Shown here: positions 903 to 62,595 of the stretch, in pieces
Numbering within the stretch: position 1 is the stretch's first letter
How the letters are laid out: every line of letters begins with the position of its first letter
Virus record (IMG/VR): IMGVR_UViG_3300010883_000017
Span: 9,849 to 73,848 of that record
Origin: a virus
Length of the DNA: 64,000 nt
Direction: 5' to 3' (one strand)
Translations under genes and position numbers: made by a program
The notes under the pieces: model-generated
What the model was told of the DNA's origin: nothing
The model's database searches: none
Seen by the model: only the letters and a program-made list of their open reading frames with translations

Positions 903-906
903 CCAA

Positions 907-1020
907 AGGTTAGCGAAGAATAGCAAAGTGAGGTTGCGGCTAGTTATGCGTGGGTGTGAAATTTCGTGCATTGTTTAGCAAGTGCCCCCGTTATGTAGAA
1001 ATATATACCGGGGGATTTTT
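907..1020 (+). ncRNA. pentamer-periodic guide-like RNA unit U1 (15 pentamers + GAAA hairpin 985-1014)
   Basis: aggtt agcga agaat agcaa agtga ggttg cggct agtta tgcgt gggtg tgaaa tttcg tgcat tgttt agcaa; G at position 2 in 14/15; hairpin followed by ATTTTTAATCCAAG. Confidence 0.8.
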
Positions 1021-1026
1021 AATCCA

Positions 1027-1084
1027 AGTGCAGTGAAGAGAGACTAGAAGTGCAAATCCAAGTAACACAAGGCAAAGTAGGACA
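1027..1084 (+). ncRNA. truncated/degenerate pentamer unit U2 (no terminal hairpin)
   Basis: Follows the ATCCAAG linker; agtgc agtga ... agtaa cacaa ggcaa agtag gacaa with one register slip; runs into the next ATG. Confidence 0.45.
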
Positions 1085-1633
1085 ATGAATATCTGCCATG
1101 AGCACGAGTTCATACTATGGGCACACCCGAGAACCGCAGCGCGTTTTGTATATTCTGCGCTGCGGAACCGCGGAAGCATGGGTCCTCTCACGCATCGAAC
1201 CGGTGTTCCGATAGACGGCGCTGGTTACAGTGTTGTTTGCACGGTGCGCAATCCCTATACGCGAATGCTATCTGCGTGGAAGTGGACGAATGCGGTGGGA
1301 AAGCAGCGGTACTCGCCGGAGAGTTTTACGGAGTTTGTAAGAAAGCACACGCCGTTATGGGGGTTACCGCCGATTTCAAAGGACCTGGGCCACAAGTTGA
1401 AGATGGTCAAATACTTTGTGCGCACAGAGTCGATTGAGAAAGACTTACGCGCACTCCCCTGGGTTCCGGACACACATTCGTTCCCCAAGAATACGTACTG
1501 TAGTAATTATAAGGGCTACACTCCGACCGCTTTGTATGACGAAGAAGCACAAGAGAAAGTTCGCCGGTTGTATTGCGGAGATTTTGCAGAGTTCGGATAC
1601 GATCCAGATGTGATTCCCGCAACGTTTTATTAA
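1085..1633 (+). CDS. sulfotransferase family 2 protein
   Basis: HPRTA (5'PSB-like), VRNPYTRMLSAW (3'PB), C-terminal DFAEFGY. Confidence 0.75.
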   Translation: MNICHEHEFILWAHPRTAARFVYSALRNRGSMGPLTHRTGVPIDGAGYSVVCTVRNPYTRMLSAWKWTNAVGKQRYSPESFTEFVRKHTPLWGLPPISKDLGHKLKMVKYFVRTESIEKDLRALPWVPDTHSFPKNTYCSNYKGYTPTALYDEEAQEKVRRLYCGDFAEFGYDPDVIPATFY

Positions 1634-1646
1634 CGAAAGAAGGACA

Positions 1647-1907
1647 ATGAGAGTAACGGAGATTTCTGTAGAAGTAGGCAGAACTGCCACCATTAATTAC
1701 CAGAGCGCGCGCAACTCAGTTGGTCTTACAGCCACCCTAGCGGCTGATGACCACGCGCCTACCGCGATCCGCTCGTTACAAAAGCAAGCCGTAGATATGC
1801 TTCTAGGTGACAACGAACAATTTCGGGACGCCGAAAATGTGACTTCTGTGGATGCGGAGAGCCTAGATGCGGCTATTCGTGCAGGGGCGGAGTCTCGCGA
1901 ACACTGA
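1647..1907 (+). CDS. hypothetical protein
   Basis: ORF with GAAGGA RBS. Confidence 0.6.
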   Translation: MRVTEISVEVGRTATINYQSARNSVGLTATLAADDHAPTAIRSLQKQAVDMLLGDNEQFRDAENVTSVDAESLDAAIRAGAESREH

Positions 1908-1931
1908 TTTACCGTGGGTAACGGGCAAATA

Positions 1932-2960
1932 CTTTGTTATCCATAACAGGATTTTTGATCTAAGTCGTGCCCCGTAGTGTGGAGAGGATCTAAGAGGACT
2001 ACCGCCGACAACAGGAAGTACGGTATGCATCCTTGGCGTGCAGAAATGTGCGCCAGGGGTTTTTTGATCTAAGGCCAGTCTTGAGGAACGAAGTTCGGGA
2101 AAGTCTCGATGAGTTTACTTGTGTACTGCCAATTTTAGTTCGCAATAGTGATGGAAAGCGGTGCGGATTTTAGCGCGGCGTAGTACAGTGCCCCCGCCAT
2201 GTGGAAACGCGTGGCGGGGGATTTTTGATCCAAGGGAAGAGGCGCAAAGGGGTACCAAGTTGAGCTCCGCATACAAACGCTTAGAACTCGGCAGTACAGC
2301 GAGGGATAGCGCTGCGCAGCGATGCGTAGACTAATGTAAGTAAGCATCCCTGTCGTATGGAAACATGCGCCAGGGATTTTTTGATCTAAGAAATAGCAAA
2401 GCAGCGTACGGGCATGATCACTCATAACAAGTCGAGCGCACTCTAGGTGTGTGCGGTATACAAGAGTAACAGCCCCCGTCATGTAGAAATGTGTGACGGG
2501 GGATTTTTGATCTAAGCCGGGTAGGGTAGAGGGATGCTCGGTAAATACCAGCCGGGACAAGTGTGGCCGTCAAGTGCGGGCTCAGTTAAGTTAGCGCTTC
2601 CGTCGTGCAGAAATGTGTGGCGGGGGATTTTTGATCCTAGGAAAGAGCCGTTGTGGCAAGTGGAGAGGAGCCCAGACCAGCATCGTATAGTAGCGCTCGG
2701 TCAAGCTCGGGATACCTTAGCCCGCGTAATCAGAGATGGTTGCGCGGGTATTTTTGGCCCCGTTCGTCTAGTGGACTAGGACACCGGCTTCTCAAGCCGG
2801 GAACAGGAGTTCAATTCTCCTACGGGGTACATTTTGATCCAAGTGGAGTCGATATTACCGGTGTATAGGGGAGGCTAGTCCTGCAACGAGCAGTTCTGCG
2901 TCGCTCAGATAACCAGACTAGTGGGCCCGGGCGTTCGTTACGGGCGCTCGGGCTCATTTA
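1932..2960 (+). repeat. array of seven pentamer-periodic guide-like RNA units (U3 1963, U4 2072, U5 2233, U6 2389, U7 2515, U8 2639, U9 2842) separated by hairpin + ATTTTTGATCYAAG repeats
   Basis: Hairpins at 2031-2058, 2191-2220, 2348-2375, 2473-2502, 2597-2626 and 2721-2748 (GAAA/GAGA loops) and 2922-2956, with compensatory changes and G-U pairs; intervening tracts have 5-nt periodicity. Not a CRISPR array. Confidence 0.88.
2757..2829 (+). tRNA. tRNA-Glu (anticodon CTC), no encoded CCA
   Basis: Acceptor GCCCCGT/ACGGGGT, anticodon arm CCGGC-TTCTCAA-GCCGG, T arm AGGAG-TTCAATT-CTCCT. Confidence 0.92.
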
Positions 2961-2997: not shown

Positions 2998-4041
2998 ATG
3001 AAAAGCAGGAAGAAAAAAGTTAAGCAAAATACAAAGCGAAACGCGCCGAAAACATCAGTTTTGCGCCGCAAGAATACACGTTTAATGAGCAGGACTTCCG
3101 GAGGACGGCAGTCAGTTGTCGAAGCGCGTCTTGATAAAAAGGCCGATACAATTTTGGCCAAAGCAAAAATCATCAAGATAGCTGCGCAACCAACAAAGGT
3201 GTACCGCACTGTGAAAATTGACGATCTCCAGATCGACAACTCTTATCAGCGTCCGCTGAAAGAAGGTCATATTGCTGACATCATGATGTACTTCAATTGG
3301 GAGGGCTTCGGCACACCAGTTATAGGACGCCGTACTGGTGGCGGGCTATGGTTAATTGACGGGCAGCAGCGGATTACCGCAGCGCAGCGCTTGGGTGCTA
3401 CCAGCGTTGGCGCAGAGATCCGCGATTCTGTAGGGCCCAAATATGAAGCAAGTCTGTTTCATTTGTTGAACTCAACGAGCGTCGTCCCGACGAAGATGCA
3501 GATCTTCCGCGCGGCATTGCGCGCGGGTAATAAGAACGCCGTTGCTATCAATAAAGCAGTTAAAGAGGCGGGATTTCAAATCCATTTGAATGCGGTCAAT
3601 TATAGCGGCAGCGAGTGGCCGTATATTCGAGCACTCAGTCGTTTAGAAAAGCTGTTTAAGTACGGCGGCGTACAATTTCTTACGGAGGTGCTCTCGATAA
3701 TTAGTGAGACGTGGCCGGAAGAAGATGACGCAGTTCGCGAGGACGTTATCGGTGGAATGCACCGGTTTATTCGTTTTACTCGGTACAGTGATCCGCGCCC
3801 CAAGGGCTGGTTGCACGAGCTCATGCCCACAAGGGGGATGACGCGCCGCGATCGTATCGTAGAGGCGATTACGCAGAAGGGTCTGACTGCTGCAGGCTTA
3901 CATAACAAAGCTGCGAACAGCAAGGAATCGGCGTCTGGCTACAGCCGCGCCGAAGCTGTGCAGCGTATCTTGGACGAGACGTGCAGGTTTAATAGCCGCC
4001 GTAGAACGCCTAAAAGTACCGCTGCCGACGACATGGTTTAA
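2998..4041 (+). CDS. ParB/Srx-like N-terminal domain protein (DUF6551-like)
   Basis: LQIDNSYQRPL and LIDGQQR motifs; basic N-terminus. Confidence 0.7.
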   Translation: MKSRKKKVKQNTKRNAPKTSVLRRKNTRLMSRTSGGRQSVVEARLDKKADTILAKAKIIKIAAQPTKVYRTVKIDDLQIDNSYQRPLKEGHIADIMMYFNWEGFGTPVIGRRTGGGLWLIDGQQRITAAQRLGATSVGAEIRDSVGPKYEASLFHLLNSTSVVPTKMQIFRAALRAGNKNAVAINKAVKEAGFQIHLNAVNYSGSEWPYIRALSRLEKLFKYGGVQFLTEVLSIISETWPEEDDAVREDVIGGMHRFIRFTRYSDPRPKGWLHELMPTRGMTRRDRIVEAITQKGLTAAGLHNKAANSKESASGYSRAEAVQRILDETCRFNSRRRTPKSTAADDMV

Positions 4042-4096
4042 TACATGCGTATAAGCCCCCACACACACACTTTGCGTGTGTGCGGGGGTTGTTTAC

Positions 4097-4171
4097 TGCT
4101 CTGTGCTGCTGCGCGATACAAAGCGGAGCTGGGTCAAGCGGAGAAATGCCCGGGCCAGCATAGCAGAGTTT
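4097..4171 (+). ncRNA. pentamer-periodic guide-like RNA unit U10, directly upstream of the Cas7-like gene
   Basis: tgctc tgtgc tgctg cgcga tacaa agcgg agctg ggtca agcgg agaaa tgccc gggcc agcat agcag agttt; G at position 2 in 14/15; preceded by a CCCCC..CGGGGG hairpin (4056-4088). Confidence 0.82.
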
Positions 4172-4203
4172 TTGTTTTTGAAATTAAATGGAGGAATTTG
4201 AGT

Positions 4204-4998
4204 ATGCCAACCACAAAAAAGGCCCCTAAAAAGGCCACTAAAAAGAGAGGCGTTAAAGGAAATATGTCTGCGATGTTAGCAGAGATGCCAGACGACGCGC
4301 TTGCTACCATAGAAAAAGAGGGGGGAGACCTTCTCGACCTGGAGCTTATTGAGTTTCACTGGTTGGAGTGTGAAATCATCGGATCAAGTCCTTTGGTTAC
4401 TAATCGGTTCTCTGATGAGTCTTTGGATGCGATCGAGGGTAATCAGACCCAAGGAGCAACTGGTAAGAAGCTTAAGAAGCCCCCGCGACAACCTGAGAAG
4501 GAGTTTATGCAGGCTGCGCATATATGTAAGGGGAAAGCAGATCCTGCGCACCTTGAGAAGAACATCTATGGATTTCCCGCTGTCGCTTTGAAAAAGGCCA
4601 TGGCTAACGGGAACTACAGATACGGAGGCGCGAAGGATAAGGTGTCGCAGATGGGCGCATTTCATGTGCACGGCCCCTGGCACGGGCTGATCGAGGTGCA
4701 GGGGCTTGATGACAAGCCGTGTATCCCCTCGATGGGACGTGATATGGTCCAGCTTCCTAAGGGGCAGATTGCGTCTATCGCGTATAGACCATACTACTTC
4801 CCGTGGAAGATGAGCGTATTTATCCGGTATTGTCCGACCTTGATGTCCAAGGACGAGCTGATTCACGCCCTGTATATCGCAGGCAATTGCATCGGCATTG
4901 GTTCTTGGCGCACGGAAAAGAGCGGGGACAAGGGCTCGTTCGACGTCGGTGATATCAAGTACCACGGAAAAAACTTCCAAGCACCTCTGTGCTCGTAA
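4204..4998 (+). CDS. stand-alone Cas7/RAMP-like RNA-binding protein (Vipr-like candidate effector)
   Basis: GGAGG RBS; EIIGSSPLV strand, YGFPAVALKKA helix, RPYYFPW, and Gly-rich C-terminal loop AGNCIGIGSWRTEKSGDKGSFDV typical of Cas7-group RAMPs. Confidence 0.75.
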   Translation: MPTTKKAPKKATKKRGVKGNMSAMLAEMPDDALATIEKEGGDLLDLELIEFHWLECEIIGSSPLVTNRFSDESLDAIEGNQTQGATGKKLKKPPRQPEKEFMQAAHICKGKADPAHLEKNIYGFPAVALKKAMANGNYRYGGAKDKVSQMGAFHVHGPWHGLIEVQGLDDKPCIPSMGRDMVQLPKGQIASIAYRPYYFPWKMSVFIRYCPTLMSKDELIHALYIAGNCIGIGSWRTEKSGDKGSFDVGDIKYHGKNFQAPLCS

Positions 4999-6237: not shown

Positions 6238-6834
6238 ATGGCGACCACGGAAACGGCACAAACCCCGGCGCTAGCCACGCCAGTTGAAGTTCGATTTAGA
6301 GCTGCAACAGGTTCGCGCTTTAATAAAGCAGATGCTGAACGAATTGGGCCCGAACTACTGCGGCTGAAGAAGCACCACGGAGTTCTTACCAAGGATCTAC
6401 TTGTACAAAAGGCGCAGAGCGCCCGCTCGATCTTGCATGCTGATTTTAATTGGGATGACGCAACAGCTGCGCATGCCCACCGATTGGAGCAAGCACGTTA
6501 CATACTGCGGTCCATCATGATTGTGTGGGATGAGAGCACACCTGATGGCGGTGTCGAGCAGGTGTCTACGCGCTTGTTCCACAGTGTCCGCGTGAACAGC
6601 GATGATGAGGATGCCCCAACAAACCGCGGTACCCGCAGTCAACGCGTACACGTCACGTTTCGAGATGTGGTTGAGAACCCGGAATACGCTCAACAGGTCA
6701 TCGATTCTATGGAACGAGCAGTAGTGCGGTTGGATGCACGATTTCGGTTTTATTTGGATAAAGTTCCAATGTTTGCCGAAAGGTACCAGGGACTTTTTGA
6801 CGAGATTACCGCCTTGGAAGATAACATAGACTAG
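6238..6834 (+). CDS. hypothetical protein, candidate accessory of the Cas7-like gene
   Basis: AGGAGG RBS; LHADFNWDDATAAHAHRLEQARYILRSI motif. Confidence 0.7.
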   Translation: MATTETAQTPALATPVEVRFRAATGSRFNKADAERIGPELLRLKKHHGVLTKDLLVQKAQSARSILHADFNWDDATAAHAHRLEQARYILRSIMIVWDESTPDGGVEQVSTRLFHSVRVNSDDEDAPTNRGTRSQRVHVTFRDVVENPEYAQQVIDSMERAVVRLDARFRFYLDKVPMFAERYQGLFDEITALEDNID

Positions 6835-17475: not shown

Positions 17476-18466
17476 GTTTAATACGGCTGGGCTTTCTTTA
17501 AAGCCTTTGTCACAAAGAAAGTCGAAACTCAGTGTTAACGATTTAGTACTTCCAAAGTTTTTGCATCCGTCGGTGGCTGGGGCGGCCGCGGAGTGCGCTG
17601 CTCGCTATCTCGCAGAGAAGATACGCGAGGCAAAAGAGACCGATCGTAAAGTCATACTTTTCATGGGCGCGCATCTAATTAAGCTGGGGCTCACGCGATA
17701 CATCACTGATCTTATCTTGAATGGATATATCGATCACGTGGCTACCAACGGGGCCTGCGCTATTCATGACTTTGAATTGAATACGCACGGAGAGACCAGC
17801 GAGGATGTGCAAACGTACATCGATAATGGTCAGTTTGGTCTCTGGGAAGAGACATCTAATTTGAATGAGGTTGTCGCGGCGGCGTACCAGGGCGGTATTA
17901 ATTGCGCCGAGCCTTATTCGCCCGGAGCGGGCCATTCGATCGGGACGTGGTTATATCACAACGAGGGCGCGAGCCCGGAAACGTCTATTTTTGCTGCGTG
18001 TCATAAAATGAATGTGCCGATAACGGTTCACATTCTTATTGGTGGTGATATAAATCACTCTCATCCCAACTTTGATGCTGCAGCGTGGGGCGTCTGCTCT
18101 TACAATGATTTTCTTATCTTTGCGGAATCCCTTAAAGGACTCCATAAAGGTGGTGTCTTTTTGAATGTGGGGTCGGCAGTACATGGCCCCGAGATATTCT
18201 TGAAAGCATTGAGTATGGTTCGTAATGTCTCTTTATGTGAGCAGTTTACAACAGGGGTTTTTGACTTTGCAGATCTTCCGTCATCCTGGCGAGATTTCGA
18301 ACCACATCCGGCAACCCCGCTATACTATTTTCGCCCATGGAAAACACTGTTGATGCGGACGAGCAAGGGCGGCCATAGCGAGTACGTAGGCGGCAACTTT
18401 ACAAATACGATTCCTTTACTTTGGGGTACGATCAACGGATTAGGAGATTTCGATGGCGACAATTGA
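17465..18466 (+). CDS. deoxyhypusine-synthase-like fold protein
   Basis: MGAHLIKLGL, ATNGA.AIHDFE, TSEDV, GSAVHGPEIFLKAL. Confidence 0.65.
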   Translation: MDNRFNTAGLSLKPLSQRKSKLSVNDLVLPKFLHPSVAGAAAECAARYLAEKIREAKETDRKVILFMGAHLIKLGLTRYITDLILNGYIDHVATNGACAIHDFELNTHGETSEDVQTYIDNGQFGLWEETSNLNEVVAAAYQGGINCAEPYSPGAGHSIGTWLYHNEGASPETSIFAACHKMNVPITVHILIGGDINHSHPNFDAAAWGVCSYNDFLIFAESLKGLHKGGVFLNVGSAVHGPEIFLKALSMVRNVSLCEQFTTGVFDFADLPSSWRDFEPHPATPLYYFRPWKTLLMRTSKGGHSEYVGGNFTNTIPLLWGTINGLGDFDGDN

Positions 18467-28320: not shown

Positions 28321-29997
28321 ATGGCCAACAGTCGAGGTATCGACGGACAGAATAGCTTTGCCTTTACGAAAGGGCGCATGAGTCCGTCGTTAGTCGAGTC
28401 TATGCTGATTCGACTCTTATCACATCCAGGTTTATTTCAAGAAGCTAAGGGTATTCTCTTACCAACTCATTTTGAGAGCACTGAGTCTCGGTTTTCTGCT
28501 ATTTGGGCGGCGGCCATTCAGTGTGATGATGAGTTTGCTCGGTTGACCTTTGAGACGATGTCAGACCGGGTTGAAGAGTTACTTGCTGATGCAGGAGAAG
28601 ATGTTTCTTCGCAACAGGGAGAGGCGATTTTTGGAACGGACCCAGACCGCCCGGGGATTCTTTACTGGGCGTTATCGCAAGTAGATCCCGCCGATGTCGA
28701 CCTTGATCAAGGGCGCCATCTTCTACGTCGTTTTTTAGAAGAGCGGGTACTTGCTGACGAGCTGCGAAGTGCGCTTGAATTTGCTCCCGGCGGCGTCCCG
28801 TCTAATCTTCCCGCCATTATTGAGCGGGCTAACCAGGCGCGGGAGCGCATCACCAATATTCAAGATGATCCTGTAGAGCTGGGGATCCCTGATAATTGGG
28901 AACCAGAATCGCTCGACATCTGGCCAACATGCTTACCCTTTTTAGACACACCTATGGACGGTGGTCACGCGCGTGGCGAGGTGTACGGGATCTTGGGGCC
29001 GTTTGGCGTTGGGAAAACTACTCTTGGTATTCAACTGTGCGTGGAGCAATGTCGTTACTGGCACGACCGCGAGGTTGAGTATGGAGAAGAGGGTGGGCAG
29101 GTTTTTTTCTTCAGTTATGAGCAATCGGCTACGGAAGTTCGTAGGAAGGCTGTTGCCTGCGCTGCGCGTATTCACATGTCGACGATGAATACTATTACGG
29201 GAGAAGACAGTTTTAGCACTCGGGGTTCTCTTAAGGACTATGAGACGGAGATGTTCAGGCAATCTGGCCTACTGTCTAACGGTGCTCCGCCTCCGCCAGG
29301 AGAGCTAGAGCGGTACGAGGATATTAAGGAGATGCTGCGCACACACTTACGTATTGTTGATCTCTCTGGCGGCGCTAAGAAGCGTACCGGTGATGGGTAT
29401 GTAGGCGAGATCGCAGCAATTCTTGAAAATAGCGTAAGGAAGCACAATTCTAAGCCTCGCATGGTTTGTATAGATCATGTGTGGCTTGCGGCGTACCGGC
29501 ATCTATCGTCACAGGGAATGGATGAGCGGCGATTGCGGCACTTCATTACCATGTTTGGTGACGATATGAAGACTAAAGTTGCTGAGCGGTACGAGATTCC
29601 TTGTTGGTTGTTGCATCAATATAACGGTGATGCGAATAAGGCCTCTCCGGCTAAGCTTCTTCATCATACCCAGGCGGCAGAGTCTTCTAGCTTTGCTATG
29701 CCTTTATCTTTTTGCTTTTGCATTGGAAATAAAGATCAGCAGTCTAATACTGCGCAGATGGTCTGCACCAAGCGACGGCGATCGGGAAATCCATTACCGC
29801 CCTCAATACTTGAAATTGAGGGGCAGTTTTCGACATTGCTTGATAGAACTGACGCCTTTGTTGTCCAGCATGATAAGATTCTCCCCCGAGAGTTAGCTGA
29901 GCAGTTTGGCGGTTCAGCAGAGGAGGTAAATTATGTTCCACGTCCACAGCAGGGTGGTGGTTTGGATGGTGCGGGAGTCTGGGGCCCGGGAGTATGA
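28321..29997 (+). CDS. DnaB-like replicative helicase
   Basis: GPFGVGKT, FSYE, CIDH, LHQ; upstream of primase. Confidence 0.8.
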   Translation: MANSRGIDGQNSFAFTKGRMSPSLVESMLIRLLSHPGLFQEAKGILLPTHFESTESRFSAIWAAAIQCDDEFARLTFETMSDRVEELLADAGEDVSSQQGEAIFGTDPDRPGILYWALSQVDPADVDLDQGRHLLRRFLEERVLADELRSALEFAPGGVPSNLPAIIERANQARERITNIQDDPVELGIPDNWEPESLDIWPTCLPFLDTPMDGGHARGEVYGILGPFGVGKTTLGIQLCVEQCRYWHDREVEYGEEGGQVFFFSYEQSATEVRRKAVACAARIHMSTMNTITGEDSFSTRGSLKDYETEMFRQSGLLSNGAPPPPGELERYEDIKEMLRTHLRIVDLSGGAKKRTGDGYVGEIAAILENSVRKHNSKPRMVCIDHVWLAAYRHLSSQGMDERRLRHFITMFGDDMKTKVAERYEIPCWLLHQYNGDANKASPAKLLHHTQAAESSSFAMPLSFCFCIGNKDQQSNTAQMVCTKRRRSGNPLPPSILEIEGQFSTLLDRTDAFVVQHDKILPRELAEQFGGSAEEVNYVPRPQQGGGLDGAGVWGPGV

Positions 29998-31079
29998 TGA
30001 GTAGCGGTGCACAGGTACTTAATCCTGAGTTGTACCGGCGTCTTCAGAAAAACTTTGGTAATGTATTGATTGCGAATCCCGGCGAGGGATTTGTGGCAAC
30101 TGTACGCCGAGGGTTGGACGGGCGCCCTAAGCAGCAGATAGCGCACTCTGGGGAGTACTACAGAGTGTGCTGTCCTTATTGTAAAGACACCCGTAACCGA
30201 TTATGGGTGAACCATAAATTCGGGGCCTTTGATGAAAATACACGCAGTAAAAATACGCACTTGGCTATTTGCTACAACGAGAACTGCCTAACCCACCCGG
30301 CACAGCGGCAGCGTTTTGAAAACGCGATATTCCTCGGAATGAACTGGTCTCAACGTAAAGCCGTGGTTGTTCAGCGGGGCAGTACGCACGACGATACGCT
30401 TCGTGTTGTAAGTCCACCGGGCACGCTTGTTCCTGTTAATCAGCTCGCAGATGGCCATAAGGTTTCAGCATATTTGCGTAGTCGTGGCTACTCTCCGGAG
30501 GAGCTCGGGACGTCTTTTCATGTTGATTATTGTGAGTTCGCCGAGCCTAAGTACCCTGCAGCCGCCGATCGTATTGTGGCGTCTGTTGTAATGGACGGGC
30601 AGCTTGTTGGTTGGCAGTGTCGTTTTATTGGTGACATTGACTGGAAGCGTGCGGGGATGGCTAAGTACTATACCCGGCCGGGTATGCCTAAGAGGTTGAT
30701 GTTTTACAACTATGATCAGGCTAAGAATTATCCATTGGTGGTTCTTACTGAGGGTATCTCAGATGTTTGGGCTGTCGGTCCGCAAGCAGTTGCCATGCTT
30801 GGTAAAAAGTTGCACGCCTCTCAAGAGCGCCTCTTGTGCGACACATGGGGCGAAGGTGTGCTGGTCGTAATGCTGGACCCCGACGCACGAGATGAAACTG
30901 ATAAGTTGGTTCAGCGGTTAGAGTCTAAATTTGCAGGTGGTGTGGTTCCTGTTTACTTAGATGAGCAGGACCCCGGCGATCTTGATCGGGATGTTATCTG
31001 GTCAATTATTTCTGAAGAGTTAAAATCACGTAATTACCAAATGTATTCACTAGAAGAAAAAGAAGGAGATATATCATGA
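29994..31079 (+). CDS. DNA primase
   Basis: CPYC..C zinc finger, GWQCR, TEGISD, DPD, DPGD. Confidence 0.85.
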   Translation: MMSSGAQVLNPELYRRLQKNFGNVLIANPGEGFVATVRRGLDGRPKQQIAHSGEYYRVCCPYCKDTRNRLWVNHKFGAFDENTRSKNTHLAICYNENCLTHPAQRQRFENAIFLGMNWSQRKAVVVQRGSTHDDTLRVVSPPGTLVPVNQLADGHKVSAYLRSRGYSPEELGTSFHVDYCEFAEPKYPAAADRIVASVVMDGQLVGWQCRFIGDIDWKRAGMAKYYTRPGMPKRLMFYNYDQAKNYPLVVLTEGISDVWAVGPQAVAMLGKKLHASQERLLCDTWGEGVLVVMLDPDARDETDKLVQRLESKFAGGVVPVYLDEQDPGDLDRDVIWSIISEELKSRNYQMYSLEEKEGDIS

Positions 31080-51383: not shown

Positions 51384-52130
51384 CTCCTTGCTGAAGGGTG
51401 GTGGTGGGGAATCGGAAACCCGTACCCCTCGCCATCACCCACTTTTATACAACTGGCCTCGGAGGGTGTTTCGCCCTCCACGTGAAGAGGTAGTCGGACC
51501 AGGTCCTCACACGACCTCGCTCCGCGACGCCGCGCAGGACTTGGTCCTACGATCGGCATATTGAAAGCATGGAGGCGCCCTGATTCACCTAACAGTGATG
51601 AAGGGCGTCCCTGGTGCTTTCCACCCTACAAGCCCCGGAGAGGTCGCTCCTCCCACGCTCCGAAAGGCGGGCGTCCGGGCAAAGGCCGAGTGGCGGAACT
51701 GGCAGACGCTCAGGACTTAAAATCCTGTGTCCTCACGGACGTGCGGGTTCGAGTCCCGCCTCGGCTACCATAAACCTCCGGAGAGTGTTTCGCTCTCCAC
51801 GTGATGGGGGTTTCCCCGGGCCATCCGCTGGTTTCGCTACGCGAAAACGCAGCTACTGGCCCCGGGGACCAGGTGCGATTGGAGCATAAGGGGTGACGAG
51901 CCACAGCTATCGGGACATTAGTCCCGGGACGCCTAGGGTTCGTTGCCCCTAAATTGCTCCCTCCCATCACACACGAGGTTTCTGCGCAGCTTGTTCGCTG
52001 CGCTCACTGCGCTGCGACGCTGCAGCCGGAGCTGCCGGCCTTCCGCGGCATTCTAAGCATAAGGGACGGCGGAGTGCCGGGGACAGTCTCCTCGCGCATA
52101 AACCGCCGTCCCGGATTGCTTTCTTTCAAT
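51384..52130 (+). ncRNA. candidate large structured ncRNA surrounding tRNA-Leu
   Basis: Continuous succession of long stems, duplicated covarying hairpin, no convincing ORF. Confidence 0.55.
51684..51770 (+). tRNA. tRNA-Leu (anticodon TAA) with encoded CCA
   Basis: GGCCGAG/CTCGGCT acceptor, CAGGA-CTTAAAA-TCCTG, long variable arm, GCGGG-TTCGAGT-CCCGC. Confidence 0.95.
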
Positions 52131-61330: not shown

Positions 61331-62595
61331 CGGCGAAAGCGTCGCTTCCTTCAGAGTTGCTGGCAACCAGTAAATTAAAGCTCGTACATCTGGAAGTTAC
61401 TTCTAAGTGTAACCTCCGCTGTACGTACTGTGCGGTTAGCCAGCCTGAGTACAAAGGGTACGATTTAAACGTATCCAATTTGCCTGGCATCGTCGCTGAC
61501 CTCAAGCGGCTGGGCGCCGAGACTATTAGTCTTAACGGTCATGGGGAGACCACCTTTCATAACGATTGGAAAGATGTCTTTGAGGCAATAGTCGGTAATT
61601 TTCCCAGGACAGAGATTACTACTAATTTAGCACGTAATTATTCTGATGAAGAGATAGAGCTGTTATCTCGTGTAGATGTTATCACGGTCAGCTTAGACAC
61701 CCCCGACCCGGTATTACTGAAAGACACGCGCAGACATGTGGATCTCGGCGTGGTCTTGACCAATATAGCTAGGATTCGAGGGGCCGCGCGACATCGCCCT
61801 GCCGCAAAATCTGAAACCGATCATAGGCCGGGTTATATGAAATTACTCGGGGTTGATCCTGCTGTTGCTCCGGATGTTATTAGTGCTACGGGCACAGATC
61901 CCTACTGGGCTCATAACGCTTACAGGATTACTCCTCGGTTTATGTTTAGTTGTGTCGTTCACGATAAGAATGTGCTGACACTTCCAGCGCTCGCACATCT
62001 TGCCGTGGCTGTTAATGTTTCACACGTCATATTTTGCAATATGACAAAATACAAGGATCTCCCGGGGGTCGTGAATGTTCAACCTGTGAGTTCTTTGTCG
62101 GACACTGATGCGCTCATAGCTGCGCGGGAGTCTTTGAAGCTGGCAGAAGGAATCCTTCTTAGGAATGGATTACATCCTGATGTTCAGGACAGTCTGCCAG
62201 CGTCTATTGATGAGGCTATCGCTAATAGTTGGCGCAAAAAGGCGGCTCCGCGCCCTTTAACAATTGCCACCGTTAAACAACCACATGCTGCACTGTTATC
62301 TGCGCAACGTAATTTCAGGATGCCTGAAAAAGGAGAGACCCGGGATTGCTTAGATCCGTGGAACTTTTCAATTATATATGCAACTGGAAAGGTTGCTCCT
62401 TGTTGCTGGCATGACTCGATGTATACGCTTGGTAAGGACGGATCTCTTTTAGATATCCTCTCAGCCGAAAAAACCGTTAAACTAAGGAAGCAGTTACTAA
62501 CAGGGCGGCTTAATAAGTTTTGTAAGACGTGCCCTGCGCGTGGACTAACTACCACGGACGACCTGCGAGAAAAAGTTGCTGCGCGGGACGACTAG
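61327..62595 (+). CDS. radical SAM protein with SPASM/twitch domain
   Basis: CNLRCTYC, GHGET, C..PW..GKVAPCC..CKTC. Confidence 0.88.
   Translation: MTAKASLPSELLATSKLKLVHLEVTSKCNLRCTYCAVSQPEYKGYDLNVSNLPGIVADLKRLGAETISLNGHGETTFHNDWKDVFEAIVGNFPRTEITTNLARNYSDEEIELLSRVDVITVSLDTPDPVLLKDTRRHVDLGVVLTNIARIRGAARHRPAAKSETDHRPGYMKLLGVDPAVAPDVISATGTDPYWAHNAYRITPRFMFSCVVHDKNVLTLPALAHLAVAVNVSHVIFCNMTKYKDLPGVVNVQPVSSLSDTDALIAARESLKLAEGILLRNGLHPDVQDSLPASIDEAIANSWRKKAAPRPLTIATVKQPHAALLSAQRNFRMPEKGETRDCLDPWNFSIIYATGKVAPCCWHDSMYTLGKDGSLLDILSAEKTVKLRKQLLTGRLNKFCKTCPARGLTTTDDLREKVAARDD

Follow-up and report, generated by a model that had tools for sequence, protein, structure and literature searches.

VIPR and Its Closest Relatives

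VIPR is a CRISPR-like, RNA-guided DNA silencer that was first described in 2026. Its reference representatives are the type II systems of Escherichia phage SUSP1 and of a Pseudomonas fulva prophage, as represented structurally by PDB 36pp (10.64898/2026.04.26.720920, 10.64898/2026.04.26.720927, 10.64898/2026.10.15.759431). A VIPR system comprises Vipr, an accessory vap gene next to vipr, and vrRNAs, in which the repeats are capped by a 3' tail of conserved structure. The Vipr protein is a minimal, single-RRM RAMP possessing a G-loop and a thumb, and it polymerises with one protomer per pentamer of the vrRNA. These pentamers display a GGY/NN or related consensus, of which the NN dinucleotides alone pair with DNA, and binding gives rise to an R-loop triplex along with the silencing of transcription (10.64898/2026.04.26.720920, 10.64898/2026.04.26.720927). 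Repeat variants, i.e., NNNGG, YNNNG, and NNNNG, are allowed, and pairing follows an experimentally established 1-nt-skip code. That is, after each NN pair a single base of the target is passed over, usually the one at the wobble position of a codon (10.64898/2026.04.26.720920). Published natural targets consist of satellites, prophage regulators, other VIPR systems, and host REP decoys (10.64898/2026.04.26.720920, 10.64898/2026.04.26.720927, 10.64898/2026.10.15.759431). Already in print are VIPR as such, its skip rule, variants of the repeat consensus, and the targeting of catalytic cores. A restriction–modification (RM) C5 methyltransferase is not mentioned as a VIPR target in the main texts of the three VIPR papers.

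Cas7/crRNA complexes and VIPR are alike in assigning a protomer to each fixed-length segment of RNA, and in the use of a thumb which periodically breaks the guide–target duplex. They differ in their periods, with VIPR employing 5 nt of which 2 bases pair but Cas7/crRNA employing 6 nt of which 5 bases pair.

Considered here is one unit, U8, of a pentamer-repeat array which is carried by an uncultured marine phage. Addressed are its repeat anatomy, the homology of the adjacent Vipr protein, the match of U8 to database sequences under the skip code, and the context of the matched genes. The above-noted papers are instead the source for the assembly of filaments, for the skip rule, and for silencing. 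I infer, in turn, the expression and loading of U8, its real target, and its benefit to the phage. U8 very likely is a vrRNA of a VIPR system. The fuller explanation, which is that this phage's VIPR uses U8 to silence an RM C5 methylase gene bearing catalytic motif IV, whether of a host or of a rival element, I consider to be probable on balance.

The Array and the Anatomy of U8

The DNA analysed, referred to here as the window, is a 64,000-nt stretch of IMG/VR record IMGVR_UViG_3300010883_000017 (record positions 9,849-73,848; full record 73.8 kb). The features of relevance, in window coordinates, are as follows.

903-2960, plus strand: putative vrRNA array; non-coding, with eight period-5 tracts, broken by ORFs at 1085-1633 and 1647-1907 and by a tRNA
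2629-2640, plus strand: 5' junction of U8, TTTTGATCCTAG, which departs somewhat from the more common TTTTGATCTAAG or TTTTGATCCAAG
2639-2718, plus strand: putative guide tract of U8, made up of 16 pentamers that follow the register [A/N]G-x-NN, with NN 1-12 spelling [DE]L[IM][IM]GGPPCQAF on the target coding strand
2720-2755, plus strand: tail of U8; its stem is of 13 bp and is closed by a GAGA (GNRA) tetraloop, with AUUUUU following
2757-2830, plus strand: tRNA-Glu(CUC), within the array, between U8 and U9
2998-4041, plus strand: ParB-like DUF6551 gene; it separates the array from vipr and is found in the same place in close relatives L043 and L045
4088-4182, plus strand: period-5 tract, 14/15 G; the vipr leader, ending about 20 nt ahead of the start codon
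4204-4998, plus strand: vipr, encoding a 264-aa protein, predicted to be a stand-alone RAMP (Cas7-like)
6238-6834, plus strand: candidate accessory (vap-like) gene; 198 aa, phrog_15946, no Pfam family

The array's junction, TTTTGATCYAAG, is present in eight copies. Seven of these lead into a tract of 60-115 nt that is followed by a long hairpin and U-run, and the remaining copy (1017-1028) leads into ORF 1085-1633. Seven of the array's tracts are bounded upstream by a TTTTGATCYAAG junction and downstream by a hairpin of 13-14 bp plus U-run, with the first tract (904-978) being one without a junction upstream. When cut into pentamers starting from the AG of the junction, all of the tracts display a G at a fixed position, usually with an A preceding it, along with three variable bases. 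There are about nine such period-5 tracts in total, i.e., the eight of 903-2960 plus the one at 4088-4182.

The two ORFs that interrupt the array lie between its second junction and U3. The product of ORF 1085-1633 shows a weak match to Sulfotransfer_2 (E 5e-4), that of ORF 1647-1907 is 86 aa in length and of no family, and both ORFs are syntenic in related locus L043. Other period-5 stretches of G (at least 10/12) can be seen at 17575-17634, 29949-30018, and 61723-61792, with C on the minus strand at 51485-51559(-), and a further one is located about 3.4 kb upstream of the window (record positions ~6400-6500). The number of these extra stretches is about what chance would provide at that threshold.

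The U8 pentamers, in order, are AGGAA AGAGC CGTTG TGGCA AGTGG AGAGG AGCCC AGACC AGCAT CGTAT AGTAG CGCTC GGTCA AGCTC GGGAT ACCTT. Position 2 is G in 15 of the 16, position 1 is A in 10 of 16, and position 3 is a pyrimidine in 10 of 16. Over the array as a whole, with degenerate ends counted, the equivalent values are 71% (G2), 49% (A at G1), and 63% (pyrimidine at Y3). U8 is the array's cleanest repeat register. A G at a 5-nt period in at least 15 of 16 pentamers has a chance probability of 1.1e-7 for any single start, which becomes 0.014 when both strands of the window are taken into account.

The final AG of the U8 junction is also the first conserved AG of the U8 tract. Ahead of that AG this junction departs from the others, i.e., it reads CCTAG where they read CTAAG or CCAAG. 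At its other end, the geometry of the U8 tail matches that of the GAAA-loop tails of other units. A stem of 13-14 bp, a GNRA tetraloop, and a U-run are found after five consecutive units, with the sequence of the stem varying by unit, and no pseudoknot is evident in the U8 tail upon minimum-free-energy folding. An alignment of units by their 3' ends reveals as well a semi-conserved linker of about 10 nt ahead of each hairpin. As the last two pentamers of U8 align with this linker in other units, NN 15-16 of U8 probably are part of a conserved 3' linker or tail rather than of the guide.

Directly 3' of tRNA-Glu(CUC), where other units carry a hairpin, the junction TTTTGATCCAAG begins (2757-2843). 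The embedded tRNA may be a processing element, that is, cuts by RNase P and RNase Z could mature the neighbouring guides. Arrays which are interspersed with ribozymes have been described for VIPR, with tRNAs not mentioned (10.64898/2026.04.26.720920, 10.64898/2026.04.26.720927, 10.64898/2026.10.15.759431).

The Vipr Homologue and Its Neighbours

The protein encoded at 4204-4998 has no Pfam family. Against PDB sequences its sole match is SUSP1 Vipr 36pp, both when used singly (phmmer E 3e-4) and when used as a profile of 15 homologues (E 8e-9), with the alignment spanning YRP...AGN.IG.G.WR, i.e., the thumb YRP and the G-loop. An AF2 model (pLDDT 73), when submitted to Foldseek, finds Cmr4, Csm3, and Cas7-11 as its best matches (E 3.5e-6 and weaker), and the protein, as modelled, has a Cas7-like fold. 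It is this predicted fold that the window has in common with the Cas7 subunits of class 1 CRISPR systems (Csm3, Cmr4, Cas7-11). The window differs from those systems, however, in being without CRISPR repeats, cas1/cas2, or large and small subunits, and in each guide possessing a hairpin tail of its own.

Residues that contact the repeat in SUSP1 have been retained in part. The G2-contact residues R138 and W178 are present here as R195 and W235, and R179 of the Y3 pocket is present as R236. Across this clade the G2 contacts are conserved, and G2 of the repeats remains G. In SUSP1 Vipr it is H17 and D177 which read G1 (10.64898/2026.04.26.720927), and these align here with N67 and S234. The exchange of H17 for N and of D177 for S fits with G1 being mostly A in this array, and from the alignment this looks like a switch in protein–repeat specificity. 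With SUSP1, GGY to AGY is among the substitutions that abolish silencing (10.64898/2026.04.26.720920), and therefore activity of the AGY repeats seen here would depend on that putative change in the G1 pocket.

In relatives whose Vipr shares 24-46% identity, homologues of ORF 6238-6834 are found directly 3' of vipr, and by this position as well as homology the ORF is a candidate vap gene. In the window, three small ORFs lie between it and vipr. The homologues are located at 8785-9009 in L039, 8657-9007 in L041, and 10744-11310 in L048.

Likenesses to and Differences from Reference VIPR

In common with SUSP1 VIPR, the window encodes a stand-alone RAMP with a YRP thumb arginine and a G-loop W-R; its RNAs are built of pentamer repeats in which the NN are hypervariable, and they end in a structured 3' tail; its array of guides is intergenic, beside vipr, and phage-borne; and there is a wobble-aligned, 1-nt-skip match to coding sequence, which in this case is that of the catalytic core of an enzyme.

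There are also differences. The repeat is [A/N]G-x-NN here versus GGY-NN in SUSP1. Vipr is 264 aa in length, with a basic N-terminal extension, versus a SUSP1 chain of 202 aa. Capping the tract is a simple 13-bp hairpin with a GNRA loop and a U-run, whereas in type II (SUSP1 and P. fulva) the tail is pseudoknotted. Tracts extend up to 23 repeats in the window versus the 9-16 that have been published for VIPR, and the array holds a tRNA, unlike that of reference VIPR. Neither of the genes neighbouring vipr, i.e., the ParB-like DUF6551 gene and the 198-aa ORF, is matched to published vap families. The features by which type II VIPR is recognised, that is, GGY/NN repeats as read by H17/D177 and a pseudoknotted tail, are absent from the window.

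Related Loci

Loci from marine metagenomes with 69-79% Vipr identity retain the same order of small ORFs, array, ParB-like DUF6551 gene, leader tract, and vipr, with arrays that have different and fewer guide units. Among 34 related VIPR loci no guide resembling U8 was found, with the best match (21/32) being at the level of chance. U8 itself is identical in sequence across independent seawater metagenomes. One contig from a seawater run matches positions 2337-2385 (5 differences over 49 nt), up to the junction following the U5 hairpin, and then diverges, with its guide tract beyond that point being the tract found at 745-784 of related locus L047. From this it follows that co-occurring relatives share junctions and hairpins but differ in their guide cassettes.

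Contigs from two metatranscriptome runs cover vipr and its leader, with 4048-4358 spanned, and not the array, though small RNAs usually are lost from such data and contigs are not equivalent to reads. A search of IMG/VR with a motif combining the junction and the hairpin end returned no matches, and so too did a search employing a single Vipr protein sequence.

Decoding U8

The preliminary description of this DNA, made from its letters alone, had listed an NN string for U8, and cutting 2639-2718 anew into pentamers and taking positions 4-5 yields the identical string. Decoding is antiparallel: to write out the target strand 5' to 3', the NN are reverse-complemented and a single unspecified base is placed behind every dinucleotide. 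Read in this manner as codon positions 1-2, the earlier [KN][IM][DE][CW][DE]L[IM][IM]GGPP[CW][QH]A[FL] is obtained again. The rule that was used is the published VIPR 1-nt-skip code. Reading as codons the three non-AG bases of each pentamer was also tried, and rejected. The result, KIE*ELIMGGPPCQAF, contains a stop, and the third base of the pentamer is the buried, skipped position.

The 12 NN nearest to the 5' end of U8 decode to GAnCTnATnATnGGnGGnCCnCCnTGnCAnGCnTT, i.e., to 24 specified bases. Exact matches number 34 in prokaryote contigs, as taken at one genome per species, plus 4 in IMG/VR. By chance only about 0.004 exact 24-base matches would be expected in the 596-Gb one-genome-per-species collection. 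An earlier figure of 1 in 16^7 per position, as had been put forward for seven specified dinucleotides, ignored multiple testing, but chance is untenable given 34 matches versus the ~0.004 expected in the genome collection.

All 38 matches fall on DL[IM][IM]GGPPCQAF, sense-oriented and in frame, with 37 of them having DLI[IM], and the residue after the motif is Ser in 36 and Ala in 2. The matched ORFs are 251-598 aa in length. Ten were scanned and each of the ten is a PF00145 C-5 cytosine methylase (E 1e-50 to 1e-67), with several of the ten possessing as well an N-terminal HTH_17 domain. The earlier assignment of the decoded peptide to motif IV of C5 DNA methyltransferases is upheld by these matches, as is the prediction that went along with it, which was that the best gapped matches should be in such genes and in codon register (38/38). 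In the U8 junction the NN is CT, to which an AGY serine codon would be complementary. Such a codon is present after the motif in 25 of the 38 matches, and this CT may be an additional guide position or a coincidence.

Use of the same core with a skip of 0, 2, or 3 nt returned no matches from IMG/VR in each case, versus 4 with a 1-nt skip, though these are small numbers. At the targets, the wobble bases do not display complementarity to the x base of the guide beyond that expected by chance, that is, the target wobble base behaves as a skipped position. As to the phage's own DNA, the claim that the window contains no such methylase gene extends to the whole of the 73.8-kb record, which is without a C5 methylase or a near match. 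With no PF00145 gene present and the best site for U8 within the record at 19/32, U8 therefore does not target its own phage.

A second unit, U4, decodes to VTA[KN]PPFS. This peptide corresponds to the NPPF motif of N6 methylases. Considered together, U4 and U8 suggest a theme of DNA-modification targets.

The Matched Methylase Genes

In all six of the neighbourhoods examined, the methylase gene is convergent with that of a type II restriction endonuclease. Three of these neighbourhoods (L005, L011, L022) are of bacterial MAG or genome contigs, in which the endonuclease is of the SinI family. The other three (L036, L037, L038) are of viral contigs, in which it is of the TdeIII family and the pair is found beside P2/HP1-like baseplate genes. 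That the target might be a host RM gene or instead a competing element, as had been offered in the preliminary description, thus fits in both of its forms, with three bacterial and three P2/HP1-like viral contigs carrying RM pairs. Going by record titles, several hosts of the matched methylases are marine bacteria. The printed peptides place 30 of the 38 matches in a single subfamily (CQAFS[TS]AG[KQR]R) and 8 in others.

Incomplete Matching and Alternative Readings

Among the 38 matches none agrees with all 16 NN of U8, the best being 28/32. It is the four hairpin-proximal NN (AA AT GA TG in target order) which match poorly: the GA of the target usually is matched, NN 13 (target TG) is matched in 0 of 38, and NN 15-16 are matched rarely. 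The better matches cover 81-87.5% of the 32 whole-guide positions, and NN matching of at least 80% has been accepted as indicating a natural VIPR target (10.64898/2026.04.26.720920). If NN 15-16 are counted as tail, then 13 of 14 NN are matched, with the best match 26/28. The exact 14-NN pattern gave no matches in JGI metagenomes, and an 11-NN pattern with TG required at codon -1 gave none in IMG/VR. When the 14-NN pattern was allowed up to 3 mismatches in 28 and was searched for in 401 genomes of one bacterial class, only the seed genome matched. Near-perfect sites are rare, and U8 is a guide that is specific to a subfamily rather than pan-methylase.

The persistent mismatch of NN 13, that of NN 15-16 in most matches, and the two empty pattern searches could also be read as indicating that U8 is a genuine vrRNA but that its natural target is a gene which has yet to be sampled, one matching all 14-16 NN, rather than the methylases found. 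Such a gene might encode a C5 methylase that is divergent, having Cys or Trp ahead of [DE]L[IM][IM], or the target might instead be an unrelated sequence. I view this as unlikely, if still the most serious of the alternatives, since all 24 contiguous specified bases are found in 38 independent genes of a single family, in frame and in sense, and since the last two pentamers probably are linker, leaving a best match that exceeds the 80% which suffices in the published work. Less likely again is that U8 is not loaded by Vipr at all, being instead either a decayed unit, i.e., a relic beside a tRNA, or a decoy RNA that redirects the VIPR of another phage. Solo and decoy vrRNAs have been described (10.64898/2026.10.15.759431), the CCTAG junction and the hairpin sequence of U8 are off the array's consensus, and the tRNA is located where the next junction would be expected. 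A relic or decoy, however, would have to be squared with a register that is the cleanest of the array (G in 15/16), with a tail that has retained its 13-bp stem, GNRA loop, and U5 run, with a cognate vipr 1.5 kb downstream, and with the invariance of U8 across independent samples, which together make this reading improbable.

The tracts had at first been taken for something else entirely, namely TRAP-like sites or the terminators of small RNAs. TRAP (MtrB) sites consist of 11 (G/U)AG triplets with 2-3-nt spacers. The window likewise has AG every 5 nt in RNA, hairpins that resemble terminators, and one tract in an mRNA leader (4088-4182), so that a TRAP-type regulator which binds NAG every 5 nt, or else terminators or small RNAs, could be imagined, with the decoding to motif IV then a coincidence. 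Unlike TRAP sites, however, the base preceding AG shows no preference for G/U, and the variable bases carry coding-motif information. No TRAP-like gene is seen among the eight neighbouring ORFs that were scanned, and it is a Vipr homologue which is adjacent. Coincidence must contend also with 38 exact, in-frame matches, as obtained with a 1-nt skip only, versus the ~0.004 expected for the genome collection. This initial reading was dropped on the basis of the Vipr homology and of the in-frame database matches, and I consider it to be very improbable indeed.

How U8 Might Act

By analogy with SUSP1, one Vipr protomer (4204-4998) would assemble on each pentamer of U8, for 14-16 protomers in all. 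Each would bury an [A/N]-G-x triplet and expose an NN dinucleotide. The resulting filament would then bind dsDNA of which the target strand reads NN-x-NN-x, and the bound filament would block transcription of the target gene. The first 12-14 NN of U8 would in this manner complement the coding strand of the [DE]L[IM][IM]GGPPCQAF codons, with a skipped base at every wobble position. The targets would be the M genes of type II RM modules of SinI or TdeIII type, as carried by bacterial genome contigs and by viral contigs that are P2-like. The most likely function of U8 is to guide the silencing of an M gene of this type, in a host or in a rival element.

Standing against this silencing explanation as a whole is that M is convergent with R and that silencing M provides a lytic phage with no obvious immediate gain. 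As speculation, the benefit could take the form of self-restriction by the rival or the host, of a failure of an incoming RM element to become established, or of an avoidance of cytosine methylation. A broader proposal can be made but only tentatively, and it may well be incorrect, which is that this marine phage aims its VIPR at RM modules and not only at satellites or prophage regulators, with U8 directed at C5 motif IV and U4 at the N6 NPPF motif.

Implications

A guide directed at the catalytic motif of an RM-associated C5 methylase would extend the VIPR target repertoire to modules of defence or addiction. The value of this addition is incremental until the real target and the effect on it are demonstrated. 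U8 comes, as well, from a divergent clade, in which the repeats are [A/N]GY and the G1 pocket is altered. The apparent co-variation of the first repeat base (G1 to A) with two pocket residues (H17 to N, D177 to S) represents a testable switch in specificity, and it could aid in the engineering of orthogonal VIPR systems.

From the perspective of the targeted gene, escape by mutation should be hard or costly given a wobble-skipping guide that is placed on an invariant catalytic motif. The same escape logic applies to SUSP1 vrRNA4, the footprint of which is on the active site of a satellite recombinase (10.64898/2026.10.15.759431). If the anti-RM reading of U8 is true, then a single such guide would cover a whole subfamily of M genes, be these host-borne or instead carried by rival P2-like prophages. 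Silencing of M would then either free the endonuclease to cut unprotected DNA or keep the DNA of the phage unmethylated.
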